Assembly (NCBI GenBank): GCA_016187335.1
Contig: JACPJW010000001.1
Span: forward strand, 512,001-576,000
Length of the DNA stretch: 64,000 bases
Direction of reading: 5' to 3'
Origin: Candidatus Aenigmatarchaeota archaeon
Lineage (GTDB): Archaea > Aenigmatarchaeota > Aenigmatarchaeia > GW2011-AR5
Below, piece by piece: positions 12,008-34,458 of this stretch. Numbering within the stretch: the stretch's first letter is position 1; the number at the start of each line of letters is the position of its first letter. The notes beneath the pieces were generated by a model. The model ran no database searches and was not told the DNA's origin. It saw only the letters and a program-made list of their open reading frames with translations. The position numbers and the translations under genes were made by a program.

Positions 12008-13024
12008 ATGGGAATACAGATGACAAGCCTCGTCGAGGGCGAGGAAGCAACTATAGAGCAGTTCTTTGACAAGAAAATAGCCGTGGACGCTTACAACTGG
12101 ATTTACCAGTTTCTGAGCATTATCAGGCAGCCCGACGGCGAGCCCCTGAAGGACAGCAGGGGCAGGATTACTTCCCATCTGTCCGGACTGTTTTACAGGA
12201 CGATGAAGCTGATGGAAGCCGGCATAAAGCCCATATACGTTTTTGACGGCAAGCCTCCTGAGTTTAAGCGGGCTACGGCAGACCAGCGCCGTGACGTGCG
12301 GGCGGAAGCAGCGCGCGAATGGGAAGAGGCGCTGAAAAGAAAGGATTACGAGGCGGCGAGAAAATACGCGCAGCGCGCTGTCACCATAACCGGCGAAATC
12401 GTGGAGCAGTCAAAACGGCTTCTGGAGGCGATGGGCCTGCCGGCAGTGCAGGCGCCCAGCGAGGGGGAAGCTCTGTGCTCGCTTATGTGCAGGCGCAGCG
12501 ATGTGTACGCCGTCGCGACGCAGGACTACGATTCCCTGCTGTTCGGCGCAACTCGCCTTGTCCGCAACCTGTCAATTACAGGAAAGAAAAAGCGCGGCTC
12601 GGAATACATAACAATAAACCCGGAAATGCTCGTCCTGAATAAGGTGCTGGAGCAGTTGGAAATCACACAGGACCAGCTTATATTATTAGGCATCCTTATT
12701 GGCACGGACTACAACCCGGGCGGCGTTCCCGGCTACGGACCGAAAAAAGCACTGGAGCTTGTCAGGGAAAAGAAAACGCTGCATGCCGTGAAGGAAAGCG
12801 TCATCTGGGATTTTGACGTCGACATGGAGGATATCTTCGCTTTTTTCAAGAAGCCAGAGGATGCTGACTACGACATAACCTTCGGCAAACTCAGCGAGGA
12901 AAAAATCGTAAAGATGCTCTGCGACGAGCACGACTTCAGCGAGGAAAGAATCGTAAACGCCTTGAAGAAGTACAAAGAATCAAAAGGCGAAGGCCAGCGC
13001 TCGCTGGGCGGTTGGGTGAAATAG
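12008..13024 (+). CDS. fen: Flap endonuclease 1
   Basis: AVDAYNWIYQFLSIIRQPDG, APSEGEA, QDYDSLLFGA, GTDYNPGG, C-terminal PIP box QRSLGGW. Confidence 0.97.
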   Translation: MGIQMTSLVEGEEATIEQFFDKKIAVDAYNWIYQFLSIIRQPDGEPLKDSRGRITSHLSGLFYRTMKLMEAGIKPIYVFDGKPPEFKRATADQRRDVRAEAAREWEEALKRKDYEAARKYAQRAVTITGEIVEQSKRLLEAMGLPAVQAPSEGEALCSLMCRRSDVYAVATQDYDSLLFGATRLVRNLSITGKKKRGSEYITINPEMLVLNKVLEQLEITQDQLILLGILIGTDYNPGGVPGYGPKKALELVREKKTLHAVKESVIWDFDVDMEDIFAFFKKPEDADYDITFGKLSEEKIVKMLCDEHDFSEERIVNALKKYKESKGEGQRSLGGWVK

Positions 13025-13170: not shown

Positions 13171-13503
13171 TCAGACCGGGCAGCCGCATCCTCTCAGGCA
13201 GGCATCTTGCAATTCAGCGCCTGTAACGCCAGGGTATTTTTGCCCGCATATAACATCTAACCTTGTTGTTTCTCCGGGAGCTTTGTAATCCTTGACCTCT
13301 ACGTCATCTATCTTGGTTCTATCGCAGCTGTAAGCGCTCCTCAATGTCTGGCAGCCTTTTCCATAAGCCTGCTCCATCTGGATTGTTCCTGCGCCTGCGC
13401 CGAACTGGCTGCTGAACAAAGCCGCCGCCACAACAAGAACGAGCACGGCTATGGCCACGATGACTATGACATTGATAGGAAGTTCCAGCCCTTTTGAAGC
13501 CAT
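13171..13503 (-). CDS. Pilin-like protein with class III signal peptide
   Basis: MASKG|LELPINVIVIVAIAVLVLVV; Cys-rich C-terminus ending CGC. Confidence 0.8.
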   Translation of the reverse strand: MASKGLELPINVIVIVAIAVLVLVVAAALFSSQFGAGAGTIQMEQAYGKGCQTLRSAYSCDRTKIDDVEVKDYKAPGETTRLDVICGQKYPGVTGAELQDACLRGCGCPV

Positions 13504-13578: not shown

Positions 13579-13905
13579 TTATTTATTTTCCGCCTTCGGC
13601 AAGGGCTGCGGGCAGAAAAGGCTGCAGCAGGTCTGGACGCACTCTTTGCCTCCCTGGGTTTTGCATTTTTCATAGTTAAGCTTGGTGCATAGCCTGACAA
13701 GCTCGGTTTCAGCGCCTTTGGTGCATTCTATGTCGTTGTTCACGTGCTTGATGCACAGGTCCCTCTGCTTGTTGAGGTCGTCGATGCTGCTTTCCGCCGG
13801 CCGGAAATTGGCATTGAAAAAGTAAAGAAGCACTGTCAGCACAAGAACTGATAGCGTAAGGACAACAATCGTTTCCAGGGTCAGCGAAACGCCTTTCCTT
13901 CGCAT
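13579..13905 (-). CDS. Pilin-like protein with class III signal peptide
   Basis: MRRKG|VSLTLETIVVLTLSVLVL; Cys-rich. Confidence 0.78.
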   Translation of the reverse strand: MRRKGVSLTLETIVVLTLSVLVLTVLLYFFNANFRPAESSIDDLNKQRDLCIKHVNNDIECTKGAETELVRLCTKLNYEKCKTQGGKECVQTCCSLFCPQPLPKAENK

Positions 13906-14028
13906 GATTATTATTTTGGTTTCCGATATATAAACAAAATCCACCATCTAAAAAATCACAAAACTCATAAATGCGGCAGAATCGGGCTTGCCTTTACTTT
14001 AACTTCTGCTTTGAGATTTATTGCTTGC

Positions 14029-15960
14029 TCATTCAGGCTCCGAGGTTTTTTCGCCGCAGACGTAATCGCCGATTTTTTCTCCTAAAGGCATTTTTCTCGC
14101 TGCGCCGCTCAGGGACGCGCCGCCCGCTCTGCACACGCTTTCATCCATTCCCGGAATATCAGCATTTCCGCACGTGTAAAGGCATCCCTGGTAGCATACA
14201 AGGTCCGCGGTGCTGCCTTTGTCCCAGTGGTAGAACCTGTACTGCAGGACGCGCACGGCGTTGCTGACGCCTTCCGTATAAGCTGGATGCACCCTCGTGC
14301 AGTCTATCGCAGGCAGATAATCTTCAGCGTTGAATTCCAGCGTGAACGGCCTTCTTAAAAATTCTTTTTTCGCTTCGTCAAAATAGTAATAGTTCCCGCC
14401 GGAGAAGGCCGCAATTGCCGAAGGCGGCTTGACATTCGGGGAGCCTGTGGTAGGTTCTGAAGAGCATGTTTTTTGCGTTGATGCGCCGCAGTCGTCCGTA
14501 TAGAGAACGCATGGGTTCACCGTGCCTTTGTCTATGGCATCGCTTGCATCACGCATCTCAAAATGAAGGTGCGGTCCCGTTCCTTCCCCGGTGCTCCCGG
14601 TCTTCGCTATTTCTTCGCCGGCAGTTACTTTTTCTTTTCTTTTGAATACCAAGTCGTTGTTTATGCTGCTCAGGTGCATGTACCACGTATAATAAGTCTC
14701 TCCGCCGAAGTCATGCCTTATCCTCATGCATACGCCGCCGCCTCCGCATGCATTGGGATTTATGTTGACGAAATCCACGGTGCCGTCAGCCGCGGCGTAT
14801 ACAGGTTCGCCCGTGTTCGCGCCTATGTCAATGCCGCCGTGAAAGTCCTGATTCCCGTTAAGTGTCCTGGTGCCAAAGCAGCTTGTAATCGCGTGGCTTT
14901 TTGTCGGCCATTTGAGAAATCCGGAGCTTGCAGAACCGCCTTCTGTTATCTTCACGTTCGCGTCGTAGTGCAGGTAAAGGCCTGCTCCTGCCGGCAGGAC
15001 GCCGCTTTCCGTCGGGACAATCAATTCCGGCCTTGTCCTGTAGTTCACGTTGATGACGGCTTTCTCAAGGTTGCCGGGATTTCTCAGCAGCAGTATATCG
15101 AGCAGCCCGTCCTTGTTGCTGTTGGTGAATTTTTTCAGATAATCGTCAGCGCTTTGTGTTGCTGCAATTCCAACGAAACGCGGAGCCCAGTCGTCCTGAT
15201 ACCTGAATTCATGCCTGTAAAGCTCGTTGCTGCCTGAGGACAGCTTCTCCGTGAAGCTGACGGAAAGTCCCAGAAGCAGTTTGGTTATCGCCTCCGCTGA
15301 AAGCCGCATCCTCTTGAATTCCGTTTCAACGAGGAACTTGTTTTCCAGCGGCCCGTAGGTGCACACAGCATTTTCGCAGCTGCCGGCGGATACGATGACG
15401 TCATGTTTCATCAGACCTTCAATGCCCTTGTCCGTTGCGGTTATTTTTGGATTCACGTTCTTTATTTCAATCGTCAGGCCGTTTGCCTCAAATTTTCGGA
15501 AATTTCCAAGCGAAATCATCTTTGCTTTCAGATAGCTGCTAAGCTGTTCATCATCCGGAATGCACGTCATCGGGTTGCCGCTGCCGTACAAACCCTTGGG
15601 CAAAAGTGATTCGTACAATTCCTGGCCTGACGACGCTGCAGTGCTTTTTTCTATTGCAGCATCCGTCTGCAGCCAGTACTTCTCCTTGAACCCTGCGGGC
15701 CTTCCGCCCTGAAGCCCGCAGCCTATCGCTTCGTCGCCTGTCTGGAAAACGCTTTGTATGGTTGAGACGGTCCAGGTGTTTCTCAGTGATTTCTGCAGAA
15801 GCGTGAACGTGTCGGATGTTTTTATTATCTGCAAAGAATCAAGGACCATTTTTTCCTGGCGCGCGCTGCCTGCTATTGCGTCCTCGTTCACTACAAACGT
15901 TAGAACAAGGACTATTCCGGTCATTATAATCAGCCCGTAAGTCATTGCAGCGCCTTTCAC
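14029..15960 (-). CDS. Large pilin-like protein containing an M23 (LytM/lysostaphin-type) metallopeptidase domain
   Basis: MKG|AAM + hydrophobic helix. M23 domain ~14500-14910: WP....ITSCFG, HGGID, VYAAADGTV, YMHL, TGSTGEGTGPHLHFE. Confidence 0.9.
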   Translation of the reverse strand: MKGAAMTYGLIIMTGIVLVLTFVVNEDAIAGSARQEKMVLDSLQIIKTSDTFTLLQKSLRNTWTVSTIQSVFQTGDEAIGCGLQGGRPAGFKEKYWLQTDAAIEKSTAASSGQELYESLLPKGLYGSGNPMTCIPDDEQLSSYLKAKMISLGNFRKFEANGLTIEIKNVNPKITATDKGIEGLMKHDVIVSAGSCENAVCTYGPLENKFLVETEFKRMRLSAEAITKLLLGLSVSFTEKLSSGSNELYRHEFRYQDDWAPRFVGIAATQSADDYLKKFTNSNKDGLLDILLLRNPGNLEKAVINVNYRTRPELIVPTESGVLPAGAGLYLHYDANVKITEGGSASSGFLKWPTKSHAITSCFGTRTLNGNQDFHGGIDIGANTGEPVYAAADGTVDFVNINPNACGGGGVCMRIRHDFGGETYYTWYMHLSSINNDLVFKRKEKVTAGEEIAKTGSTGEGTGPHLHFEMRDASDAIDKGTVNPCVLYTDDCGASTQKTCSSEPTTGSPNVKPPSAIAAFSGGNYYYFDEAKKEFLRRPFTLEFNAEDYLPAIDCTRVHPAYTEGVSNAVRVLQYRFYHWDKGSTADLVCYQGCLYTCGNADIPGMDESVCRAGGASLSGAARKMPLGEKIGDYVCGEKTSEPE

Positions 15961-17294
15961 TATTTGTCACCAACAGTCACTATGATTTTAGGAACATCTT
16001 TCGCTGTTTTCTCGCCGAAATTGCATTCCTCGCCTGTCGGTTCAATCGGCGGCGAGGTTTTTACCTTTCTCAAATCAGCTGTCACGCAGCACTGGTATGT
16101 GTTGCCTCTGGAAGCAGGGCAGTCTTTTGATATCTCGTGGTCTTTCACGCCGATAGATTCGCACTTCTGCACGTCAAGGCAGAATCCGCTCTTGCCTGTG
16201 GTTGTCGTGCATTTTATTGTCTGCGTCACGCAGCACAGATTTGCCGCGTCATTGCAAAAGCCGCGCGCAAGTTCGCCGCTGCACAAAGATTGCTTTGTTT
16301 TGGGGTCAGTGATTTTAGGGTCAACGCAGTAAAAAACCGGCGCGCCTTCCTTTGTTCTGTAAAGCAGCGGCACTTCAGCGGAGACAAGCGCTCCCAGTTC
16401 GGCAATGCCGACTTTGTCAGCAGGCGCGCAGCATGTTGTCGCGTCAAATGAAAAGGTTTTCCCGCCGCCCGGCAAGGGCACATTAACAACAGGCAGTTTT
16501 TCCGGCACGGTAATCCTTTTGCCCTTGCATTCGTTGGAGCCTTGCGGTATTTCTATCCTTCCTTCGCTGCAGAAATAATCGCACACACCAAGATCATTCG
16601 CGCCGCATCTTGCGACTGAAGGCTTGTCCGGCGGCGGGTTGTTGTAATCGCCGTTTTCTTTCACATCTTCCTTGCAGCACGCGGTGTTCAGATTGACAAG
16701 GCTTTTTTTCGTGTCAAGGAAATTGAACAAAGGGCATTTGCCTTCTGCTGAAATTTCAATTCTTCCGACGCCGCAGGGCGCTGCCGGCGTGGGATTGTTT
16801 ATCGGGTCAAGCTGCGGCGTTGAGCAGAATCCCTCGTCTTTCGCGCCGCATCGCCTTCCGTTCTTGTCAAGCTCGTATGTTACGGCTTCCCCGGAAATTA
16901 TTTTTACATTGTAATATTCTAAAGGCAGACCACTCAGATAATTCCTTATCGCGTAGTCAAGCTTGTCCCTGTCGCTTGCAGGCATTTTTCCTGTAATTGC
17001 TGACTGCAAAGCTATTTCAGCAATTGTCCGCTCGTCAGGCTTCAGCAGCATCATGATGTGCGCAATGGAATAAGGGTCCTTTGAAAGAAGGATAATTTCA
17101 TAGCTCCGCGACGACCTCGGGTCCGCGCCTGCTATCGCAAGGATAGTTTTCATGACAAGGGTTAATATGATCATAATGATTCCTATGAAAACAATAAGCA
17201 GTACGCCGACAGGCTCTATCTGCCCCTTGAAGGATTTCCGGATTTTCCCTGTTTTGTTTTTCCCTGATTTATAGTGATTTTTCATAAACATCAC
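15960..17294 (-). CDS. Class III signal peptide protein with Cys-rich repeats
   Basis: FKG|QIEPVGVLLIVFIG; repeated CG...G.C...C..GRIEI....C...CC units. Confidence 0.75.
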   Translation of the reverse strand: MMFMKNHYKSGKNKTGKIRKSFKGQIEPVGVLLIVFIGIIMIILTLVMKTILAIAGADPRSSRSYEIILLSKDPYSIAHIMMLLKPDERTIAEIALQSAITGKMPASDRDKLDYAIRNYLSGLPLEYYNVKIISGEAVTYELDKNGRRCGAKDEGFCSTPQLDPINNPTPAAPCGVGRIEISAEGKCPLFNFLDTKKSLVNLNTACCKEDVKENGDYNNPPPDKPSVARCGANDLGVCDYFCSEGRIEIPQGSNECKGKRITVPEKLPVVNVPLPGGGKTFSFDATTCCAPADKVGIAELGALVSAEVPLLYRTKEGAPVFYCVDPKITDPKTKQSLCSGELARGFCNDAANLCCVTQTIKCTTTTGKSGFCLDVQKCESIGVKDHEISKDCPASRGNTYQCCVTADLRKVKTSPPIEPTGEECNFGEKTAKDVPKIIVTVGDK

Positions 17295-17300
17295 GAAATT

Positions 17301-18185
17301 TTAGCCGGCACTGCCCGATGTTCCCGGCGGGGCTTCGTTCTTTTCTATGCATAATAACACCGAGCCGACTTCATCGCTCACACCTGCTATCGCATCTTTG
17401 ACTAGGTTCCCACACTCCGCATTTGCTCCGGGCTTTATGGGATAAGCAGCCAGAATTAATTCCTTTTCACTCTTGTCAAGGCCGCCGGAAAAGGAATAAG
17501 AAACAGGCACGCCCTTGTAAAACCTGCATTCGCTGAAAGGCAGGCTCGGATGCTTTAAGCACAGCATATTATTGCCGTTGTCGTAAGTTAGGACGAAGTA
17601 GCACGTAACAGATTTTTCCGGCTGGGGGTCGCCGGATAAATATGCATCCGACCGCGGGGTTTTGCAGTTTAACTTTTCTATTTTTTTCAAAACCTGCGCC
17701 CTTTCAACGATGCACTGGACATCGCTCAGCGTGTCTTCATAAATCCTCAGGGTGAGCCTTGCAGGCTTCTCGTCAACGCTCACCGGAAATGTGGCTGTGT
17801 ATTCGTAGAGAAATCCAAGCCCGAGCCTGTTTATCGCACCTCTGAGCAGGGTTGTTTTTGGCTTGAATCCAAAACTCCATTCTTTGCCGTCGCTTTCTAT
17901 TTCCGCGCCATAGGCAAGGCTGCAGTGACGGACGAAAGGCTCTTCCAATTTCCCGTTGACATTGTCCAGCTCTGCTGACGAGAAAACAGACTTTGAAGCT
18001 GTCAGCGGCGATACGAAAAGGTTTTCAGATATTTCCACCGCAGCTCTGGGCGCCTGTTTTGAATATATGGTGGGCTCAAACGGGAACATAAGGAAAAACA
18101 CAATGGCTATTATCGCTATTTCGAATATCACGAAAATTACCCAGAAGAACGTGTTTATCTGCAATGATACTTCTTCTTCTGCCAT
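17301..18185 (-). CDS. Minor pilin-like membrane-anchored protein without a basic leader
   Basis: N-terminal hydrophobic helix, several Cys, operonic with pilin-like genes. Confidence 0.6.
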   Translation of the reverse strand: MAEEEVSLQINTFFWVIFVIFEIAIIAIVFFLMFPFEPTIYSKQAPRAAVEISENLFVSPLTASKSVFSSAELDNVNGKLEEPFVRHCSLAYGAEIESDGKEWSFGFKPKTTLLRGAINRLGLGFLYEYTATFPVSVDEKPARLTLRIYEDTLSDVQCIVERAQVLKKIEKLNCKTPRSDAYLSGDPQPEKSVTCYFVLTYDNGNNMLCLKHPSLPFSECRFYKGVPVSYSFSGGLDKSEKELILAAYPIKPGANAECGNLVKDAIAGVSDEVGSVLLCIEKNEAPPGTSGSAG

Positions 18186-18186
18186 A

Positions 18187-18681
18187 CTATCCCCTTATAC
18201 AGTCGTTGACCGGCTCAAAAATGTTTATTGCGCTTTTGGTTTTGACAAAGCAAAATGTCTTCCTCATGTTTTCTGAACATTCAAAATTTATTTTTTTTAT
18301 TTTCATACCTGTCTGCAAAATGTCCGATTTGTACTGCCGGCCCTCAGATTCGTACAAAACGTACATCTGGTTTATTTCTATCCTGCACTTTCCCTGCACT
18401 GTGCGGAACATGGCGTGTGTTGTCTCCGGAGCGGATTGCAGGATGTTTATTATGCTTGCGAGCTGCTCCGCCTGCGTGAATGAAGCCCTTTCCACAGCGA
18501 TTTTTGTCGCATTTTTCCACATGCTGAACCCGAAAAAGAAAAGAAGCAGGACGATTACCAGGAAAGGCACAAAGCCGTATTCCTGGCCTTTCCTGCGGCA
18601 AAATTTTTTTTCCCCTGCGTGGTTTTTCTTTTTAATCAGAAACACAAAATCCCCTTTTAGTTTTAGCCGGGCCATTTCCAT
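18187..18681 (-). CDS. Pilin-like protein with class III signal peptide (start probably GTG 18645)
   Basis: RRKG|QEYGFVPFLVIVLLLFFF. Confidence 0.72.
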   Translation of the reverse strand: MEMARLKLKGDFVFLIKKKNHAGEKKFCRRKGQEYGFVPFLVIVLLLFFFGFSMWKNATKIAVERASFTQAEQLASIINILQSAPETTHAMFRTVQGKCRIEINQMYVLYESEGRQYKSDILQTGMKIKKINFECSENMRKTFCFVKTKSAINIFEPVNDCIRG

Positions 18682-20276
18682 TCAAAGCCTAATATTTCTT
18701 TCACTGAAGACGGGCTGAAAGGCGTTTTCGTTATGGGCTTTACATGTATTGTGTTCTTGTCAAGGAATTCCGTGTTGTCAACAACGACTGTCAGGTCAAG
18801 CTCCCATGAAATGTCATTATAGAACCAGGACCTCCACTGCTCCCTGTAGGCGTTTTTCGTCCAGCAAAAGCCTTCCGGAGGGTCTTGTATCGTTATCTGC
18901 AGGCATTTCCCTGTCGGCGCATCATCCGGTTTTACGTCGTTTTTTCCGGCAGGGCCGAGGCCTTCAACGCACTGGTAATGCGTGCCAACCTCCTGAACCT
19001 TTTTTCCGCTATCGTCAACGAAAACGTTGTATATCGGGTATTTGAGCCAGCGCTCGCATTTGTCGGGGCCCGAGCCTTTGAGCGCGCTGCAGTCTTTTTT
19101 TTCTATCAGTATCGTTTTGTCAATATTGCATGGAGATGCAATATAGAAATCCGATGTCTTCACGCCTGCAAATGCGGTGACTATAAGGCCTGAAAATTCG
19201 CGCAGGCCCCTGTAAGCTATATTGGTTACCGCCGCTCCGAATATAGCATCTATAAAAGGTATTTTTCCCAAATATTTGAAAATGAATTTCAGAAATCCCG
19301 CGCTCTTGAGGACAACTTTTCCTACAATTGTTTTTTCAAGAACCGTCCCAAGGGCAGCTATTCCGCCTGCTTTTACAATAGCCACACCAACTGCTGCAGT
19401 ACCCGCTGTTGTAGCGACAAGAAATCCGGCTGTCTGAAGTTTTCTTGCGTCAGAAGCGACATAATTCAGGTGCACGTACTGTATGTCACCGCACGCGGAG
19501 CTCAGCGGTATGCGCGTTACGGCTTCCGGTGTTTTCAGGCAGAGCGACCTCACGCCGCACGGCCTGTATTTAATGAAAGACTTCTGCTCATTGCTCATGC
19601 TCAGGTCAAGGCGGAAAACATCCGGCTGGCCTAATGGGTTATGATAAATCCATTCCCCCGCGTTACCTTTCTTGTACTCAACCTTGCCTATGGTCGGCAG
19701 GACCGGCTTTGCCTCCGATGTCGGCATGATGTTGACGTAATCGCTGAGCATTATGTTCGGAATCACGACAGATATTTTTTCCCTTTGAAGCTGTAGTTTT
19801 CCTTCGGCAATACTTTTCAGGACAGTTTCGTACCTGCTGTTCTGCCCTGCGTAAAGCTGCCTTTCAAAATTGGTTGCGTCCTTCAGGCCCTCTGAATCGG
19901 CGGTAAACGGTGCGAAGACCCTATGGCCGATAGAATTGCCCTGGTAAACCTCCCATCCCAGGCCTTCGCCTATAGGGAACGCCTCGTAGTAAAGAAGGAA
20001 ATCAGGGTCGCCAAGACCTTTTATCCTGTAAGCTGCTAGGGCATTTACAACAATTATTTTCGCAGGCCTTACCTGCGGGAATGAAAATCCCTCAAGCTCA
20101 GCCCTCTCTTTTATGCAAGCCTCGTGAATTTTTGAGCGCAGCAGCTCCGTGTTCAGCCTTGCGACCTGTTCGTTGGAAGGTATGGTTGACAGGAAGTAAA
20201 GAAAAGCGCCTGCCATTATGGCTATCAGAATCATCTGCATTACAAGATATACCGGTTCTGAAAACCCCTTTGTCAT
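18663..20276 (-). CDS. Large class III signal peptide protein with an internal Gly/Ala-rich hydrophobic segment
   Basis: MTKG|FSEPVYLVMQMILIAIM; internal TAGFLVATTAGTAAVGVAIVKAGGIAALG...FSGLIVTAFAGV. Confidence 0.72.
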   Translation of the reverse strand: MTKGFSEPVYLVMQMILIAIMAGAFLYFLSTIPSNEQVARLNTELLRSKIHEACIKERAELEGFSFPQVRPAKIIVVNALAAYRIKGLGDPDFLLYYEAFPIGEGLGWEVYQGNSIGHRVFAPFTADSEGLKDATNFERQLYAGQNSRYETVLKSIAEGKLQLQREKISVVIPNIMLSDYVNIMPTSEAKPVLPTIGKVEYKKGNAGEWIYHNPLGQPDVFRLDLSMSNEQKSFIKYRPCGVRSLCLKTPEAVTRIPLSSACGDIQYVHLNYVASDARKLQTAGFLVATTAGTAAVGVAIVKAGGIAALGTVLEKTIVGKVVLKSAGFLKFIFKYLGKIPFIDAIFGAAVTNIAYRGLREFSGLIVTAFAGVKTSDFYIASPCNIDKTILIEKKDCSALKGSGPDKCERWLKYPIYNVFVDDSGKKVQEVGTHYQCVEGLGPAGKNDVKPDDAPTGKCLQITIQDPPEGFCWTKNAYREQWRSWFYNDISWELDLTVVVDNTEFLDKNTIHVKPITKTPFSPSSVKEILGFEWKWPG

Positions 20277-20686: not shown

Positions 20687-21298
20687 TCAGCCGCTGCATT
20701 TCATGACCCTGCCTGTCATGAAAAACGACCTCATTATGATCCAGCCGCAGGAATCCGTGAACTCTTTAAGCGTCACTCCTTTCTTCGCAAGCGCATCGCA
20801 GCCTTTGTCGGGGTTTATGAACCCGAAAACGAATGTTTCCTCGTCTTTCAGGCCTATGGAATTGAGGTCCTCTTCCTTTGCCGGGGGCGCAGTGAACCTT
20901 CTTGATGTTATAGTCTTTGTATTCGTATCCGGGGATATCTCAATAGTATATTCTCCTGTTTCCTGATTGCCGCCTATGTAGCCGGCAACAACAACTCCCT
21001 TCATCAGGAAAAACATGTTCGCCTTCACCTTTTCTTTGTATTCAAACCCTACGTTGTCAAGAATGATTTTCTTCTCGTCGGAGCAGACCTTAACCTTTTT
21101 TGCAAGGTCTTCAGGCCTGTCGGTGATTTGTATTTCCTTGTCAACGCCTGCAAATTTTATGTTTTTTGCCGTGTTGCTTGAAGTCAGCAGGACGTGGTAA
21201 ATTATCAGCAGGACAATTACCATTACTATTACTTTCAAAGCGTAATCAAAGGCGACCATGATATTAACTGTGCTTTCTGTATAATAAGTTTTCCTCAA
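20687..21298 (-). CDS. Membrane-anchored pilin-cluster protein
   Basis: Hydrophobic helix ALKVIVMVIVLLIIYHVLL near the N-terminus; stop overlaps neighbour. Confidence 0.65.
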   Translation of the reverse strand: MRKTYYTESTVNIMVAFDYALKVIVMVIVLLIIYHVLLTSSNTAKNIKFAGVDKEIQITDRPEDLAKKVKVCSDEKKIILDNVGFEYKEKVKANMFFLMKGVVVAGYIGGNQETGEYTIEISPDTNTKTITSRRFTAPPAKEEDLNSIGLKDEETFVFGFINPDKGCDALAKKGVTLKEFTDSCGWIIMRSFFMTGRVMKCSG

Positions 21299-22299
21299 AT
21301 CCCGCTTTCAGCGCTTTCTATGCAATCGTCCGCTGAATAATCCCCAGGCTTTACCTCTATGAACATCGGGCCGTAAAAATCGGTTTTATCTGGTATGAAA
21401 TTGCAGTCGTAAGCGTCGGAAACCTTGCCGCAGAAGCCGATGACAAATTTTTCCTTCAGCCGGGGGTCAATTTCCTTTTTCTCCGGAGCGAACAGGGGCT
21501 GGAGCTTTTCGGAAGTGTCTATAAGAAATACAGGCTTCGCTTTTGAGCACACATCCTTGTTCCTGAATTCCAGCAGCTTCATTGTCAGCGAGGAACCGCA
21601 CACGCTGACGGATTTATCGCACAATTTCTTGTCATCACCTTCACATTCCGTGAACTTTAATATTTTCCTTTCCGGGACAGAGGCCCCGTAGCACTGGACC
21701 TGCGCTGCTACTGTGCATTTTGCATCTGAAGCCGGAATACCCGCAAGAATTTCCGCCACGGTAATGCTTCCCACAAGTGACTGGTCTATTATTGAAATGT
21801 CGTAATCGTTTATCACAATCCTCTGGTCCTTGAGAAGATAGCCGTGATAAATTTTATCGTCTTTGAATATTGTCGGCGGCTCCGTGGAAGTTATTGTGTA
21901 TTCAATGCCTTCTTCTGCATTGAACGTTTTGTCGTCGCCTGATTTCAGGACGAGCGAGGATTTTTTCAAGTCCAGCGATTTTTTATCCTTGTAGCTCAGG
22001 ACAGGCATCACTGTGATTTCCCTGTGCGGATTCCTGTCGTCCCTGAACTTCACGCCAAGGTCTTTTATGGTGACTTCGTATTTGTAAATTCCGCCGCTTT
22101 TTGTGCATGTTATCGTTGCATCGGATTTCAGCGTCGCCGTTATTAGCTCGTTTATTTTCTGTATTTCAGGTTTCTGCTTTTCCAGAACAGACGCGAATTC
22201 CTTTGACTCTTTTGTTCCGACAACCGCAACAAGAATGATTACCGACAGGCTGACGACGGCAACTGTCATGCCGAGGCCTGCCCTCATGCCTATGTCCAT
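21295..22299 (-). CDS. Pilin-like protein, probable class III signal peptide
   Basis: MRAG|LGMTVAVVSLSVIILVAVV; paired Cys in the C-terminal half. Confidence 0.65.
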   Translation of the reverse strand: MDIGMRAGLGMTVAVVSLSVIILVAVVGTKESKEFASVLEKQKPEIQKINELITATLKSDATITCTKSGGIYKYEVTIKDLGVKFRDDRNPHREITVMPVLSYKDKKSLDLKKSSLVLKSGDDKTFNAEEGIEYTITSTEPPTIFKDDKIYHGYLLKDQRIVINDYDISIIDQSLVGSITVAEILAGIPASDAKCTVAAQVQCYGASVPERKILKFTECEGDDKKLCDKSVSVCGSSLTMKLLEFRNKDVCSKAKPVFLIDTSEKLQPLFAPEKKEIDPRLKEKFVIGFCGKVSDAYDCNFIPDKTDFYGPMFIEVKPGDYSADDCIESAESGI

Positions 22300-22656: not shown

Positions 22657-24609
22657 CTACCCGGTTATCACCACGAGCGGCGCGAATATCTGCAGCGTCA
22701 CGAAAAGCGATATCACGAAAACCAGGAACGATACCCACATGATATGGCCGCGGTTGTAGTCACGCCCAATGGGGTCCTGGCCGCTTTCTATGCCGTTTAT
22801 GAATGACGAAAGTATGAAGGACGTTTCCAGCAGGTATATGCCTACGATGAGGATGAACTCAAAAGGCGTTATATTTATCTGGCTGAACTGGCTGAGCAGG
22901 TTGGGCCCGAGCGTTGGCGATATGCCCTGAAGCCTGGTCTGCAGCTGGTTCAGTATCTGGATTATAATCATCGCCATCGTGACAATGACGCCGGAAATGA
23001 ACGGCGAGAGGAAGTACGCCTGGAATTTCAATGAGCTCACTGTCTCGTTGAAGGATTCCCGGACCTCTTCCTGCGTCTGGTGTATTCCCTTGAGGTAAGC
23101 AGAAATAGAAAGCATCGCCGCGGAAACCGTCTGCACGCCCCTTTTTGCTGACTCAACCGCGACGCGCATGACTGTTTTTATCATCTTGGAAGGATAGTAG
23201 CGCGTCGCGCCGTATTCCTTGTCGAAGAACGAATCGGAAAATGTCATGCCGAGGTTTTTCATGTTCTTCAGCGCATGGATGAACAGCTGCTTTATCGTGA
23301 GGTTCTCCATTTTCTTTACTGACCGCTCCAGGGACACTTCCAAAGGAACTCCCACGGATATATGGTTTCCTATCTGGAACAAAGCTTCAGAGAATTCCTG
23401 CTCTATTGCCCTGGTCTCGTTCCTTATTTTTATGCGGATTTTTGAAAGAAGTATGTAGTAGACAGCGAACCCAAGGAAAAGCCCGCCAAGGAGCAGAACG
23501 GGCGAGAGGACGCTTGCCGTGCCCTCGACAACGTACACGGCAAAGCCAAGGTAGCTGATGACAAAGACAACCAGCAGCGCCACGGGCCACGCAGGGAAAT
23601 AATTGTTGCCATGAAGGCGGAACTTGCCTTTAGGCGGGGCCTCGGGGTTCTCGGAAATGTCTATCTTGCTGAACGTTGCGGGTCTTGTTTCAAGTATGCT
23701 GTTTATCACGAAAATAAGGATTAGCGGCAGTATTATGTCGTAGCCTATGAAAAGAAATATAGACTTGACGCCGAGGAATATGGATATTATCGGGAAAAGC
23801 ACGAGTCCGAGGATAGGCAGGATAATGCCCAGGGCATGGACAACCATCACGGGCATCTTCAGATTCTGGTTGAAGTGGCGCGCGTTCTCCCTGTTGCCGT
23901 TCAGTATGACGTTGATGGCCTCGTCAAGCATTATCAGCCTTCTCTCGCCCGGCTGCTCTAGGGAAGCTATCAGTATTTCCAGGGATTCAACGAATTCCCT
24001 GTTGTTCTCCCACTTCTTGGCGTAGTCAAGCAGCGCGTCCTGTATGTTGAGGTAGTTTCCGATTTCTACGTCCCATAGCAGCTTTCTTATTTCGTAAGAA
24101 AGGCTGCCGGTAAGGTTTTCAGAGGCGAATTTCACAGCGCCCTCAAGGTTGGGCGTGTTTCTCATGTGCATGGACATGTAAAGGATGAACGAAACGATTT
24201 CGGAGCCTGCGTCGATTTCGTATACCTTTTTCAGGTGGAATGGATAGTTGTACAGGTAGTAAACCAGGAGCATCGTCAGAAAAAGGATTATCATGCCGAT
24301 GCCGAAAGACAGCCCGTGGTACCCAGCAATATCAAGCCCGAAAACATTGACAGTGAGCAGCGCCAGCACGATAACAGAAACAAACAGCCCGATGCCCATG
24401 GGCATTGACGAAACGTCGTCCGGCGTCACCTTGAGATGGGAAAAATCAATGGCCTTTTGCAGTTTTTCGCGCGTTTTCTTGTCCGGAGAAATTTTCAGCG
24501 TTTTGCCGAAAAACCTGCATATCTTCTCGTAGAAAGTCCGCGGCAATGACGCTATTCTTTCTTCCTCGCGGAATATCCTGTACTGCCGCGACACGGGAAT
24601 GTCAGGCAT
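22657..24609 (-). CDS. Type II secretion system F-family / TadC (ArlJ-like) membrane platform protein
   Basis: Two T2SSF-like repeats (PNLEGA..FAS; GNHISVGVPLEVSL) with multiple TM helices. Confidence 0.82.
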   Translation of the reverse strand: MPDIPVSRQYRIFREEERIASLPRTFYEKICRFFGKTLKISPDKKTREKLQKAIDFSHLKVTPDDVSSMPMGIGLFVSVIVLALLTVNVFGLDIAGYHGLSFGIGMIILFLTMLLVYYLYNYPFHLKKVYEIDAGSEIVSFILYMSMHMRNTPNLEGAVKFASENLTGSLSYEIRKLLWDVEIGNYLNIQDALLDYAKKWENNREFVESLEILIASLEQPGERRLIMLDEAINVILNGNRENARHFNQNLKMPVMVVHALGIILPILGLVLFPIISIFLGVKSIFLFIGYDIILPLILIFVINSILETRPATFSKIDISENPEAPPKGKFRLHGNNYFPAWPVALLVVFVISYLGFAVYVVEGTASVLSPVLLLGGLFLGFAVYYILLSKIRIKIRNETRAIEQEFSEALFQIGNHISVGVPLEVSLERSVKKMENLTIKQLFIHALKNMKNLGMTFSDSFFDKEYGATRYYPSKMIKTVMRVAVESAKRGVQTVSAAMLSISAYLKGIHQTQEEVRESFNETVSSLKFQAYFLSPFISGVIVTMAMIIIQILNQLQTRLQGISPTLGPNLLSQFSQINITPFEFILIVGIYLLETSFILSSFINGIESGQDPIGRDYNRGHIMWVSFLVFVISLFVTLQIFAPLVVITG

Positions 24610-25681: not shown

Positions 25682-27901
25682 TCAAAACCTGTTCTTGAGC
25701 CAGCCCTGCCATTTCTCATAAATCAGAGCGCTGTCCAGTTCGCCTGTTTCCTCTTTTACTTCGCTGCTGATTATGTGGAACATTGAGTTGCTCTCGATGA
25801 CCGTAGGCGCTTCCAGGACCTCAGGGCCTTTTGCTTTTGAATAATCCGTGAGCGTCTTCAGTATGTTCGCGCGCAGCTGGATGTTGCTCCAGATGGAGTC
25901 CCAGTTTCCTTTCCACTCGCGGACGCGCGACGCTATGTCATTTAGAACAACGCTTTCGCCTGTCAGCAGCGTTGATGTGGGCTTCAGCACATCGTCTTTG
26001 GCAGAATACTCCAGCAGGTTGACGAATCCTCCTTCATCCGCAGGGTCGCTTTTCCAGTGCTTTCTCACTTCCGTAAGCTCAACAACCCTGCGGAACGCGT
26101 GCAGGCCGTCGGGCGACCTCAGCATGTTGGCAATGACGATGAGGTCAGTCGCCTTGAAGCTTGTAGGCGGCACGCCCAGGTCGTTAACAACCCTGTCGAA
26201 GACGCCGTAGGCGGATTCGCCATGGATAGTGCCGGCAACTACGTTTGCCAAAGCGCCGATTCTCATTGCTTCGTATAATGCCAGCGCTTCGCGCGAGCGG
26301 ACCTCGCCGACGATGAGCGCGGAATCGCCCAAGCGCAGCGCGGTACGCAGCGCTTCTTCTGCCGGCAATTCCGTTTCCACGCGCGTGATGACAGAACGGG
26401 ATTTCAGCCGCTCGATATTGTATTCAAGTGCGCGCATCTGCTCAACAGGGAGCTCCAAGGTGTCTTCAACCGTGACAATCCTGATCTTCGGCATTATCTG
26501 GACCATGCATGCGCCCAGAAAACTGCTTTTTCCGCTGCTGCGCGTGCCTGCAATCAGCATCGTCCTCGCGCCGTCAATCAGGAACCACAAAAGTCCCGCG
26601 GAGAAAGGGTCAATCATCTTGTTTTGAATGAATAATGGAAATGTCCACGGCTTGTCCCTGTGGCGTCGCAGCGCGAAGCCCAGGCCGTCAGGCGACAGCG
26701 AACGCGTTATAGCCGCGACCCTTGCGCGTCCGCCCGGTACGCTGAGTTCCGTGTCAAGAACGGGATTCGCCTCGTCCAAAGGCCGTCCGGAAAGCAGGCG
26801 GAAGCGCGTTGCCCATGACTCGGCGTCCTCCATGCTGGGAACGATGTTCGTCTCGCACTCCTCGTAAACGCCGTGAAAAACATATATGGGCGAATAGCCC
26901 ACGGGCGAATTCACGGAAATGTCCTGGATGTTCTCGTCCTCAAGGATAAGCTCTATGGTCCCCAATCCCGCCGTGTACCTTGTCAGTATGTCGGCAAGTT
27001 CCTGCAGCCTTTTTTCGGAAATTTCTATTTTATTTACCTTTGACAGATCGCGGAGCATGTCCAGCCCTATCCTGAATAAATTCTCTCTCAGCCTGTGGGG
27101 ATCCTGCAGTTCAACCTCTCTCGGCTCGTGCCTGCCTATGTATCGCCGTGCATTGTCCAGCAATGTATACTCTTCCTCGGCCAGTCGGAATTCCGGCGGA
27201 ATGAGATGGTAAAGTTTGCGCGTTTTTCCATGCATCTGGTATATCTCGACAATGCTGTCGCCGACAGCATAGCGCTCAACCAGTTCGGCGTCAGCAGGCG
27301 GCAGCGTCATGTAGTGCGTATACATGAAGTTCGGCCGCACGGTGGGGTGGAAAAACTTTCTGTACAATGAGCGGTTCTTGTGTTCCGCTAAGTGCGGCTT
27401 CGCTTTCTGGATCAGCAGGCAGCTGTCCAGCAGTTTCTCTATGGGAAGCAGTGCGCTGTTAAGGTAGTGCTGCAGGCAGCTGCGCTTCAGGTCGTCGTAT
27501 TCCCGCTGCGCCCTCACGCTTGTGTGCCTGATCTCCCTCAGCAGTTGCTTGTAGGCTTCTATGGGGTCGTAGCGCATCTCGGCAACAAATTTCTGCAGGA
27601 ACTCGTAGCGCGGCGCCGCGTCGTCCTCGCACCCCCGTATGACGACGTTCTTGATGCTTATTACTTCCTTCATGGTGCGTTCCAGCGCCAGGGCAATTTC
27701 CAGCAGCATCTTGGATTCGCTGAAGTCGTATTCATGCTCCCGCGTGTCCGCAAGAACAATCCTGACTGATTTTTTTATCTCCATGAGCTTGTCTATTGTC
27801 GCGGCCATCCATACCGGATAGTCCTCTATGCTGGCGCCGTAAACGCTCTTCAGGACGTTCATCCTTATGCGCTGGTTCTCCTCGTCATATTCATACGCCA
27901 T
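25682..27901 (-). CDS. Type II/IV secretion system ATPase (TadA/CpaF/ArlI-like) with long N-terminal extension
   Basis: Walker A AGTRSSGKS, TVEDTLEL, ALRLGDSALIVGEVR, GTIHG. Confidence 0.93.
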   Translation of the reverse strand: MAYEYDEENQRIRMNVLKSVYGASIEDYPVWMAATIDKLMEIKKSVRIVLADTREHEYDFSESKMLLEIALALERTMKEVISIKNVVIRGCEDDAAPRYEFLQKFVAEMRYDPIEAYKQLLREIRHTSVRAQREYDDLKRSCLQHYLNSALLPIEKLLDSCLLIQKAKPHLAEHKNRSLYRKFFHPTVRPNFMYTHYMTLPPADAELVERYAVGDSIVEIYQMHGKTRKLYHLIPPEFRLAEEEYTLLDNARRYIGRHEPREVELQDPHRLRENLFRIGLDMLRDLSKVNKIEISEKRLQELADILTRYTAGLGTIELILEDENIQDISVNSPVGYSPIYVFHGVYEECETNIVPSMEDAESWATRFRLLSGRPLDEANPVLDTELSVPGGRARVAAITRSLSPDGLGFALRRHRDKPWTFPLFIQNKMIDPFSAGLLWFLIDGARTMLIAGTRSSGKSSFLGACMVQIMPKIRIVTVEDTLELPVEQMRALEYNIERLKSRSVITRVETELPAEEALRTALRLGDSALIVGEVRSREALALYEAMRIGALANVVAGTIHGESAYGVFDRVVNDLGVPPTSFKATDLIVIANMLRSPDGLHAFRRVVELTEVRKHWKSDPADEGGFVNLLEYSAKDDVLKPTSTLLTGESVVLNDIASRVREWKGNWDSIWSNIQLRANILKTLTDYSKAKGPEVLEAPTVIESNSMFHIISSEVKEETGELDSALIYEKWQGWLKNRF

Positions 27902-32773: not shown

Positions 32774-33709
32774 CTAGTTCATGTCAGGATTGAACTGATT
32801 CATTTTCCATGGATTCATGACAGCAACGCCTTGTTCGAGTTCTCTTGGTATTCTGTAGTCCTCTTTTTCCAATTTAACGAGCTCTGCAAGCGGTATCAGG
32901 TATTCGGGATTTCCGGTATGAAGTGCACGATATCCTAAAAGCATTTTTCCACCCGCATTCGCACCTACTTCTGTTTTTGCCCCTCTTTTAACATCAAGCT
33001 CTGAGTGTCCGCCACCTTCGTGTGCAATTACAGCGGCTGCTATGTAGGGTTTCAATTCTTTGTCAAACAATACTGTGTTTTTTACTCTTTCTCCTTTTCT
33101 AACCTTGACATTGACGCCTGAAATTCTGAAGCCATCATGGCCCGGCTTTTCTCCGAGCCCTTCAGTGAAGTATGAATTGTCAACAGGATAAACTTCTATG
33201 CCTTCTCCTCTTAGAACGCCGCACAAGTCTTCAAGCAATGCCCTGCCGCCGTCGTTTTTGCCGTGTTCTCTGTAAAGCTTTTCTCTGTATTCTTTCCCAC
33301 CCCTTTCTGTTTGTTCCAGTATTGAATAGTAACTCTGTCTTACATCGTGGTCGTCAAACCTAGGCTTGTAGCCCTCGGATAATATATAGTTAAGCATATT
33401 CTGAGCTTCCGGATTGTATGTTTCCATCAGGTGCGTAACCATTTTCCCAGGCGGCGGCTTTATCTTTTCAGGCTCTGCTTTCTCACGGTGCCTTTCTGTC
33501 ATTCTTTTGTTGTACTCTGCTTCGCTTATAGTAACGCCTAATCTCGCGCGGTCCAGCGTATCGTAGAACCAGTGTACCAGTCCTGTGGGCAGAGGAACTT
33601 TACCTGGCAGCCCCTTTTCATGTCTTTCTTTTGTGACGTATGGATATTCACTCCAAGGATTAATTCCTAAAACCTGTCCAAATGCTGGTTTTATGTCTGA
33701 GAAAGCCAT
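32774..33709 (-). CDS. Hypothetical protein with HExxxH zincin-like motif
   Basis: AAVIAHEGGGH...KTEVGAN. Confidence 0.55.
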   Translation of the reverse strand: MAFSDIKPAFGQVLGINPWSEYPYVTKERHEKGLPGKVPLPTGLVHWFYDTLDRARLGVTISEAEYNKRMTERHREKAEPEKIKPPPGKMVTHLMETYNPEAQNMLNYILSEGYKPRFDDHDVRQSYYSILEQTERGGKEYREKLYREHGKNDGGRALLEDLCGVLRGEGIEVYPVDNSYFTEGLGEKPGHDGFRISGVNVKVRKGERVKNTVLFDKELKPYIAAAVIAHEGGGHSELDVKRGAKTEVGANAGGKMLLGYRALHTGNPEYLIPLAELVKLEKEDYRIPRELEQGVAVMNPWKMNQFNPDMN

Positions 33710-33790
33710 AATATCACTACATACTTATACTACAAGGTAGTATATAAAGATTTCGCTACCTGAAAGTAGTGATATTTTGAACCAAGCTTG

Positions 33791-34399
33791 CTAATTAAGC
33801 CGTCTTTGGCGGAATACATCATTGTCGTGCAAGTGGTTGTAAGCCTCAGCCATTCTGGGCGGTATGCCAGGCAAGTTGTCCCTTCCGCCTATTAGAGGTA
33901 TGAAAGCTTTCGGCCCGTTATAACTGAATGCCCCGCCGTCTTCTATGTTGAAGAAGCCTATTGGCGCATAATTTCCACTGTCTACCAGCTTGAAGCCGTA
34001 TGAGGTAGGCCTGACTTTTACATTTATCATCTCATTATCTCCGCCCCCCTGCGCCCGCGCAGTCCGGAAGGCGTGGACATTCCTTGTCGTCACGTTGCGC
34101 CAGAAATCCACCATATCGTAGGCGGTCTTGTCGTCAACCTTGTAAAGAAGATGAGCAGGAAACTGCGAAGGGGCAAAATCGCCGAAGCTGCTTTGTATCC
34201 TGCCTACAGCGCCTAGAAGATAACTTCTGTAGTCCGATAAACTAGCGCCGTCATGGCCTTTCGGAGTCATGTACCCCGGTAGTATTCTTTGCATAGCCAT
34301 ATGGGCGTAGCGGTCAATGCTGTCGCCATCCGAGCCGAATCTCATGCTGCCGGAGCCTGAATTCATTGTTGCACTTGACGAACAAAACGGGCATGCCAT
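33791..34399 (-). CDS. Hypothetical protein with N-terminal CPFC
   Basis: SD-like GGTAGTGA precedes ATG 34399 (MACPFC). Confidence 0.6.
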   Translation of the reverse strand: MACPFCSSSATMNSGSGSMRFGSDGDSIDRYAHMAMQRILPGYMTPKGHDGASLSDYRSYLLGAVGRIQSSFGDFAPSQFPAHLLYKVDDKTAYDMVDFWRNVTTRNVHAFRTARAQGGGDNEMINVKVRPTSYGFKLVDSGNYAPIGFFNIEDGGAFSYNGPKAFIPLIGGRDNLPGIPPRMAEAYNHLHDNDVFRQRRLN

Positions 34400-34458
34400 A
34401 TCTATCACTACCAAGAATTTTTTCAAAATTCTTTCTAGACCATCTTATTTTCCTCCGG

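Follow-up and report, generated by a model that had tools for sequence, protein, structure and literature searches.

The locus described here raises the question of why an archaeon should place a bacterial-type cell wall endopeptidase on a protein that resembles a pilin, and which wall that enzyme would cut. The locus lies in a stretch of 64,000 nucleotides (hereafter, the window) from Candidatus Aenigmatarchaeota archaeon (assembly GCA_016187335.1; contig JACPJW010000001.1, positions 512,001 to 576,000 of the forward strand). There, a gene on the minus strand (P0001; 14029..15960; GTG start at 15958-15960, stop at 14029-14031) encodes a protein of 643 amino acids (aa), which we call the carrier. 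We consider it reasonably probable that the carrier is an extracellular, pilin-like component of an archaeal apparatus that resembles a type IV pilus and that its cargo is an active LytM/M23-type endopeptidase that cuts the cross-links of bacterial peptidoglycan. The carrier consists of three parts, a conserved N-module, a swappable middle cassette and a conserved Cys-rich C-module, and this organization was not described in the literature that we surveyed.

The middle cassette (residues 345-490; 14491..14928, minus) was assigned to the M23 (LytM-type) zinc endopeptidases by Pfam, by sequence matches in the PDB and by Foldseek. Pfam placed Peptidase_M23 (PF01551) at residues 373-477 with a score of 87.9 bits, where the cut-off is 28.7 (E 5.2e-25), and found no other domain in the carrier at E up to 0.1. 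The motifs HGGID (374-378), YMHLS (427-431) and HLHFE (464-468) contain the zinc ligands H374, D378 and H466 and the catalytic histidines H429 and H464, all of which are present. The PDB sequence matches included StM23, ShyA, LytM, lysostaphin and zoocin A, the best being active hydrolases, and alignment to ShyA and StM23 preserved the ligand and catalytic residues. Partial NCBIfam matches led to MepM, ShyA, DipM and Pgp3 and, more weakly, to the activators EnvC, NlpD and ActS. We also modeled the whole carrier with AlphaFold2 (AF2; mean predicted local distance difference test score, pLDDT, 83.9; predicted TM score, pTM, 0.72). The M23 domain of this model, with a pLDDT of about 86-97, matched DipM, LytM, EnpA and StM23 in Foldseek at a probability of 1.00 and a target-normalised TM of 0.74-0.85, and it shows the LytM beta-sheet fold by which membership of M23 is recognized. 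A first-pass annotation had described the same 643-aa reading frame, with coordinates that proved exact but without its strand, which is minus. The M23 domain with intact zinc ligands HGGID and HLH that it reported was likewise recovered, and its position for the domain (about 14500-14910) is close to the Pfam-based extent given above.

The cassette is embedded between two modules of a different kind. The N-module (residues 1-344; 14929..15960, minus) is modeled by AF2 as an N-terminal helix of 73 residues followed by a beta-sheet and a helical insert. The C-module (residues 521-643; 14032..14400, minus) is Cys-rich, with conserved YYY..DE and Cys columns, and is preceded by a Ser/Thr/Pro-rich linker of low model confidence (residues 491-520; 14401..14490, minus; pLDDT about 48-61). 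It had no Pfam match and no usable Atlas match, and it is kept in orthologues both with and without a cassette. In a word-indexed protein search, the only match to the full length or to the N-module was the carrier itself; the other matches spanned the M23 domain alone, and the best of these were bacterial (Paenibacillus and others; 39-48% identity). Relatives of the carrier surfaced only through genome searches and an exhaustive profile search; a related-locus search of genome contigs with the single protein as query gave no match. The N-module profile, compared with 1.84 billion representatives, retrieved only 132 clusters, and the few that were named were labelled 'archaeon' or Aenigmatarchaeota. 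Among the sampled genomes of the phylum, 21 of 201 encode the carrier; all belong to the order of the window, and within its family the gene was found in 14 of 15.

Positional orthologues range from 450 to 1600 aa and share the N-module (1-340) and the Cys-rich C-module (about 520-610) around a variable middle. When typed by Pfam at E ≤ 0.01, this middle held M23 only (L006, L007, L013), SLT, the lytic transglycosylase domain, only (L017, L019, L020 and, weakly, L014), SLT with M23 (L009, L011, L012, L015), SLT with Amidase_3 and M23 (L023), GH73 with M23 and Amidase_3 (L024), or SLT with Amidase_2 and, optionally, a weak M23 (L025, L026); four loci (L010, L018, L028 and the 1086-aa protein of L022) had no Pfam match in this region. 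Among three species of a single genus, an M23-bearing carrier of 618 aa (G017; L006:1378-3234) has counterparts of 449 aa (G193) and 462 aa (G157) (L037:1541-2890, L036:1519-2907), and the alignments break at residues 340 and 502 of the longer protein, which corresponds to the clean presence or absence of an M23 cassette of about 160 aa in the same syntenic slot. The first-pass annotation had raised the question of whether orthologous pilins lack the M23 domain, and several do, among them these members of the same genus as a species with M23. In a tree built from 91 N-modules, at least 19 changes of the M23 state and at least 13 of the SLT state are needed, and 5-7 changes per architecture class are required even if only the well-supported branches are counted. 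The states were called with custom M23 and SLT hidden Markov models, and a carrier scored as 'none' may contain a cargo of another type. A Pfam census of 100 N-module representatives of at least 350 aa found M23 in 41, SLT in 38, Amidase_2 in 5, Lysozyme_like in 4, SLT_2 in 3 and CHAP in 2, and Amidase_3, Glucosaminidase (GH73), NlpC/P60, VanY and Peptidase_M15_4 in one each. The remainder were isolated weak matches, and the recognizable cassettes were murein hydrolases only.

The target of the family may be read from the enzymes that share its slot. Lytic transglycosylases and GH73 enzymes act on the backbone of N-acetylmuramic acid (MurNAc) and N-acetylglucosamine (GlcNAc), Amidase_2 and Amidase_3 cut the MurNAc-L-Ala amide, and VanY/M15 cuts D-Ala-D-Ala. 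MurNAc, the MurNAc-L-Ala amide and D-Ala-D-Ala are all absent from pseudomurein. Because the co-occurring cassettes need features that pseudomurein lacks, the carrier family appears to be aimed at bacterial peptidoglycan, and domain co-occurrence, together with the absence of Mur-ligase and SLT matches from the genome, indicates that this polymer, and neither pseudomurein nor the producer's own wall, is very probably the target. The first-pass annotation had named a pseudomurein methanogen or a bacterium as the recipient of the enzyme; the bacterium agrees with our data and the methanogen does not, since every recognizable same-slot cassette is murein-specific.

The link to a pilus begins with the N terminus. 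The carrier opens with a leader of class III type, M-K-G with a putative cleavage site behind G3, and a hydrophobic alpha1-N segment (residues 4-25), together at 15886..15960 (minus), which were recognized by hydropathy, by the invariant K-G and by profile-profile alignment. The hydrophobic stretch that follows M/V-K-G spans 22 residues and is the sole segment of the carrier with a Kyte-Doolittle hydropathy above 1.6. The protein contains 16 Cys and no N-X-S/T sequon, and the combination of a single N-terminal hydrophobic segment with 16 Cys is consistent with an extracellular location. All 17 positional orthologues compared have K2 and G3, and in most of the 131 carrier-family representatives the helix is preceded by a K/R-G motif; this conservation speaks for GTG as the start codon. 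The public gene call starts instead at an internal ATG (M6; 638 aa) and thereby loses the K-G leader, so automated annotation would miss the pilin-type signal. In profile-profile comparison, leader and helix align in register with the small pilins of the same operon, although weakly (28 columns, probability 48%, E 1.8e-4).

The carrier is the last large gene in a minus-strand run that forms a type IV pilus-like cluster. Upstream of it are genes for an assembly ATPase of the T2SSE family (25682..27901, minus; PF00437, E 1.4e-16) and a polytopic platform protein, T2SSF/TadC-like (22657..24609, minus; PF00482, E 4.3e-6). They are followed by two overlapping genes whose products, of 203 aa and 334 aa, are hydrophobic at the N terminus (20687..22299, minus), a 537-aa protein with a KG leader (18663..20276, minus), a 294-aa N-terminally anchored protein (17301..18185, minus) and a 444-aa Cys-rich protein, again with a KG leader (15960..17294, minus). 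All five proteins encoded between the platform and the carrier have an N-terminal hydrophobic helix, and three of the five have a K-G leader. The 294-aa and 444-aa genes lie 6 nt apart directly upstream of the carrier, and the trio that they form with it is conserved across the order. Neither of the two proteins had a Pfam match, and they may be partner subunits of the carrier. The TAG stop of the 444-aa gene and the GTG start of the carrier share one base (AAATAGTG), an overlap that suggests translational coupling; the synteny of the two genes is kept in relatives. Immediately downstream of the carrier is a gene for a small pilin of 122 aa with an RRKG leader (13579..13947, minus), and the cluster ends with a second small pilin of 110 aa with an ASKG leader (13171..13503, minus).

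The order 294-aa protein, 444-aa protein, carrier, pilin, pilin and, in some cases, fen is conserved across the family and the order. In the window, the adjacent FEN1 gene lies at 12008-13024, and every named best match of its product was a Candidatus Aenigmarchaeota or Aenigmatarchaeota archaeon (60-79% identity), in agreement with the first-pass view that the cell is DPANN-like. The genome comprises 1.01 Mb in two contigs and is 91% complete, and its DNA is present in groundwater metagenomes from two studies, the first of which may have supplied the sequenced DNA; no RNA run was listed among the datasets that contain it. It encodes an A24 prepilin peptidase away from the cluster (C2:106781-107086; PF01478, 31.5 bits against a cut-off of 26.5). 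The class III-type leader and the pilin-type setting that the first-pass annotation had proposed are thus upheld, the former by the K-G conservation and the latter by the ATPase, the platform protein, the two small pilins and the peptidase elsewhere in the genome. Taken together, the leader, the operon and the peptidase are best read as those of a bulky minor or tip pilin-like protein.

We therefore provide a putative mechanism for the carrier. The A24 prepilin peptidase of the genome would remove the short M-K-G leader, the long hydrophobic N-terminal helix would anchor the protein in the membrane, and the ATPase and platform protein would incorporate it. The carrier would probably be a tip or minor subunit of low abundance that, with the two conserved upstream proteins, precedes the two small pilins of the major type. 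Flanked by the N-module and the Cys-rich C-module, the M23 cassette would then be displayed outside the S-layer, where it could open the murein mesh of a bacterium to which the archaeon attaches, on which it feeds or with which it competes. Delivery of the M23 enzyme at a pilus tip is plausible but unproven.

Several observations weigh against this proposal. No Pfam class III or pilin model matched the leader of the carrier or those of the neighboring genes at E up to 10; the same models also miss the small pilins, which look canonical by eye, and may not cover this lineage. Modeled alone with AF2 (pLDDT 86.1, pTM 0.77), the N-module has a helix at 4-76 (73 residues), a four-stranded sheet at 156-212, a helical insert at 215-293 and then two further strands, and Foldseek found no match to this model at E <= 0.001. 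Among the VIA matches other than coiled coils were GspK (Z 6.3; root mean square deviation 2.7 over 93 residues), the minor pilin PilB (Z 5.8), EpsI/J (Z 5.4), TTHA1218 (Z 5.3) and PilX (Z 5.2), and the pilin matches all span residues of about 37-213 of the model; by the tool's own notes, Z values of 5.2-6.3 fall within the range of common structural arrangements, and the evidence for a pilin fold is suggestive only. An oppositely oriented gene stands between the assembly ATPase and the rest of the cluster. Pfam at E up to 0.1 recognized no peptidoglycan-binding domain (LysM, PG_binding_1, SH3 and the like) in the carrier, and no glycosidase partner for it was found in the genome. Additionally, the orthologues without a cassette show that the carrier has a function that does not depend on the cutting of walls, and 11 of the 48 M23 domains in the family lack one or more catalytic residues.

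The weak evidence for a pilin fold leaves room for a different account, in which the class III-type leader serves export and anchoring only. The carrier would then be a surface-anchored scavenging enzyme, and its M23 domain would trim muropeptides from bacterial debris for the uptake of amino acids and amino sugars without attacking a living host. In archaea, class III leaders also occur on non-pilin surface proteins, such as GlcS and AraS of Sulfolobus and its Bas system, and bindosome-like anchoring without incorporation into a filament is a serious rival to the pilus-borne enzyme. A reduced genome implies a need to scavenge, and nutritional use of peptidoglycan by DPANN archaea has been proposed (PMC11537232). 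In contrast, the position of the carrier is fixed across the order between conserved pilus-cluster proteins and small pilins, its helix of 73 residues is alpha1-like, and the cassettes of the family include lytic transglycosylases and multi-enzyme combinations that are typical of wall-breaching proteins. On this evidence, we regard scavenging as unlikely, albeit worth keeping in view.

The incomplete catalytic sites in the family bear on a further account, in which the M23 domain would serve binding or adhesion, as do the non-catalytic LytM domains of EnvC and NlpD, or would cleave a substrate other than murein, for example a Gly-rich protein in the envelope of a host archaeon, in the manner of a LasA-type protease. 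Some of the 11 domains without full catalytic residues may indeed only bind, and both the cassette-less orthologues and the weaker NCBIfam matches to EnvC, NlpD and ActS fit such a role. However, all five catalytic and ligand residues are present in the carrier, as they are in the other 37 of the 48 family domains, the cassettes that share the slot are glycosidases and amidases that act catalytically on murein, and active hydrolases head the PDB matches. We consider a binding or non-murein function improbable for the domain in the window.

Even less can be said for pseudomurein as the target, in a methanogen host from the Methanobacteriales or Methanopyrales. The DPANN hosts known so far are archaeal, Methanobacteriales occur in groundwater and the specificity of an M23 enzyme is not readable from its sequence. 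Nevertheless, the SLT, GH73, Amidase_2/3 and VanY/M15 cassettes of the same slot need MurNAc, its amide to L-Ala or D-Ala-D-Ala, and the peptidases known to cut pseudomurein (PeiW/PeiP) are cysteine enzymes of family C71 rather than M23, which makes this target very improbable. In bacteria, machines that span the envelope often have an SLT or M23 hydrolase among their parts. The idea that the producer makes room for a pilus in its own envelope, in the manner of VirB1, FlgJ or PrgK, nevertheless deserves almost no credence: murein is absent from archaea of this group, the cassette is missing in close relatives, and the 91%-complete genome gave no Mur_ligase_M and no SLT match, where control genomes, archaea among them, did give Mur ligase matches. 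Neither murein nor pseudomurein synthesis is indicated in the genome; an own-wall role is unlikely, and we rejected remodelling of the producer's own wall.

The origin of the cassette could be traced in part. In an unrooted tree of M23 domains (133 columns), 47 of the 48 family domains fell on one side together with three bacterial rows (SH-like approximate likelihood ratio test, SH-aLRT, 95), namely two BlaR1-like proteins and one protein of Candidatus Azambacteria, which belongs to the candidate phyla radiation (CPR). This clustering fits few acquisitions followed by loss and shuffling. The tree, being short and unrooted, names no donor, and we rejected any named bacterial or CPR source. A recent foreign origin was also rejected, as the cassette matches the remainder of the gene in GC content and in GC content at third codon positions, and so was a prophage or endolysin reading, as the carrier slot is syntenic across the order next to fen.

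Other M23 domains occur in this genome and in its relatives. About 42 kb upstream of the window, the genome encodes a 1492-aa polytopic membrane protein without a Pfam match (G000:C2:465709-470187; L041:5710-10188). Its 2013-aa orthologue in the same genus (G001; L033:45-6086; 56% identity) has an extra insert at about 1462-1923 that carries GH73 and M23, and this M23 domain is the closest relative of that in the window (52-57% identity). Murein-hydrolase cassettes thus occur on at least two unrelated carriers in the genus, and they may move between the pilus-cluster carrier and the giant protein. The M23 domain of the giant protein matched tape-measure PHROG families. We also compared the C-module with the Cys-rich tail of the giant protein, and the two are not homologous. 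The genome has two further M23-like open reading frames (ORFs). One encodes 224 aa, has no signal, keeps HLGID/HLH intact and adjoins an ORF of 331 aa (L002:1381-2055; G000:C2:~120371-121045). The other encodes 370 aa with an N-terminal RR motif that is Tat-like by eye (L003:889-2001; G000:C2:~33340-34452) and is probably non-catalytic because its HxH reads VLH. In the relatives G028, G022 and G031, M23 ORFs, some with SLT, lack the N-module of the carrier (L030:1805-4945, L031:864-2300, L016:1-2613, L032:1-2094), which indicates that several murein-hydrolase genes lie outside the pilus cluster there.

That archaeal, including DPANN, peptidoglycan hydrolases are aimed at bacteria is already known from work published between 2015 and 2025. 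Large extracellular lytic transglycosylase proteins of fam00969 from Woesearchaeota and Pacearchaeota (Castelle et al., 2021, PMC8204110; AR20, 2015; PMC9723730) resemble the carrier family in that DPANN archaea without murein export murein hydrolases, which have been read as a sign of interaction with bacteria, and SLT is frequent in carrier orthologues as well (38 of the 100 representatives). Predatory Woesearchaeota have been proposed (Vigneron et al., 2022, PMC9723730). The carrier differs from the fam00969-type proteins in its phylum and in its M23-only cassette, which is not of the SLT/GH23 type; no SLT/GH23 protein was found in the genome. A pilin leader, a pilus-operon position and a conserved carrier are not described in those papers, from whose proteins we set ours apart by description. 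The unusual host range that the first-pass annotation inferred was overstated, as published proposals that wall hydrolases of DPANN archaea have bacterial targets date back to 2015 (PMC8204110, PMC9723730, PMC12352652).

Archaeal M23 and GH73 hydrolases have been shown experimentally to kill bacteria (Strock et al., 2025, PMC12352652). In that study, the hydrolases were prominent in Nanoarchaeota, M23 homologues were found in four Nanoarchaeia genomes, and the delivery routes considered were Sec/Tat signals and contractile injection systems only; class III signals, pili and Aenigmatarchaeota are not mentioned. Woldo and Danwoldo of Halogranum salarium (PMC12352652) share with the carrier an archaeal M23 catalytic domain of bacterial type that is directed outward. 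They are diffusible, Tat/Sec-secreted proteins with PG_binding_1, whereas the carrier has a pilin-type leader, a place in a pilus cluster and no recognized wall-binding domain; it therefore falls outside the definition of a modular archaeal peptidoglycan hydrolase in that work (catalytic plus recognized wall-binding domain).

Close bacterial parallels are the modular pilins defined by Raynaud et al. (2021, PMC8179133), among which peptidase modules (S74, M26) occur. The carrier shares with the modular pilins PilB and PilC of Streptococcus sanguinis (PMC8179133) and with the tip pseudopilin GspK a class III-type leader, a long alpha1-like helix, a functional module grafted on a pilin-like carrier, a gene in a pilus operon and a tip location presumed from bulk; the VIA matches to GspK and PilB given above are weak. 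In contrast to these proteins, the carrier is archaeal, has Tyr rather than Glu at residue +5, and holds its cargo between two conserved modules rather than appended to one. The swapping or loss of its cassettes, as often as counted above for M23 and SLT, also sets it apart, as does the murein-hydrolase cargo, which PMC8179133 does not mention.

Two further kinds of system offer comparisons. Hydrolases of Gram-positive conjugation (PrgK, TraG of pIP501, CwlT) and phage lysins (phi29 gp13, tape-measure M23/SLT proteins) likewise combine an N-terminal anchor with SLT, M23, CHAP and amidase domains and are attached to a machine that crosses the murein layer. They cut the wall of the producer or the host for DNA transfer, whereas the producer here has no murein and the machine is type IV pilus-like. 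The bindosome of Sulfolobus (BasEF/BasABC), compared by description, also brings large non-pilin proteins with class III leaders to the surface by means of an ATPase, a platform protein and small pilin-like proteins, but its cargo is a solute-binding protein instead of a hydrolase. A survey of the literature on DPANN and Aenigmarchaeota pili, class III signals, peptidoglycan and transglycosylases, whose coverage was incomplete and which is no proof of absence, found no pilin-type carrier, no cassette swapping and no Aenigmatarchaeota hydrolase. The new elements are the lineage-specific pilin-type carrier and the turnover of its cassettes.

To our knowledge, no host of Aenigmatarchaeota has been identified, and all cultured DPANN-host pairs of which we are aware are archaeon-on-archaeon. 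The presence of other wall-cutting enzymes, or of none, in the same slot of related proteins points to a surface device aimed at bacteria. A pilus-cluster protein whose recognizable cargo is murein-specific only offers a testable molecular handle on contact between archaea and bacteria, and it extends the idea of the modular pilin to archaea and to an enzymatic, wall-breaching cargo. A cassette slot that turns over even within a genus could also mark host switching. If the carrier were a scavenging enzyme only, it would still add a further example to the trend of peptidoglycan hydrolases in DPANN archaea that is already in print. We speculate, tentatively and with less confidence than we place in the reading given at the outset, that the pilus-like filament of this one order of Aenigmatarchaeota has a tip subunit that acts as a plug-and-play carrier of murein hydrolases, with which the cells breach living bacteria as cross-domain episymbionts or predators. 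If so, the repertoire of cassettes (M23, SLT, amidases, GH73, CHAP, VanY) would track the wall chemistry of the bacterial host of each species, and the apparatus would be the first contact-dependent machine to be defined for an archaeal attack on a bacterium.

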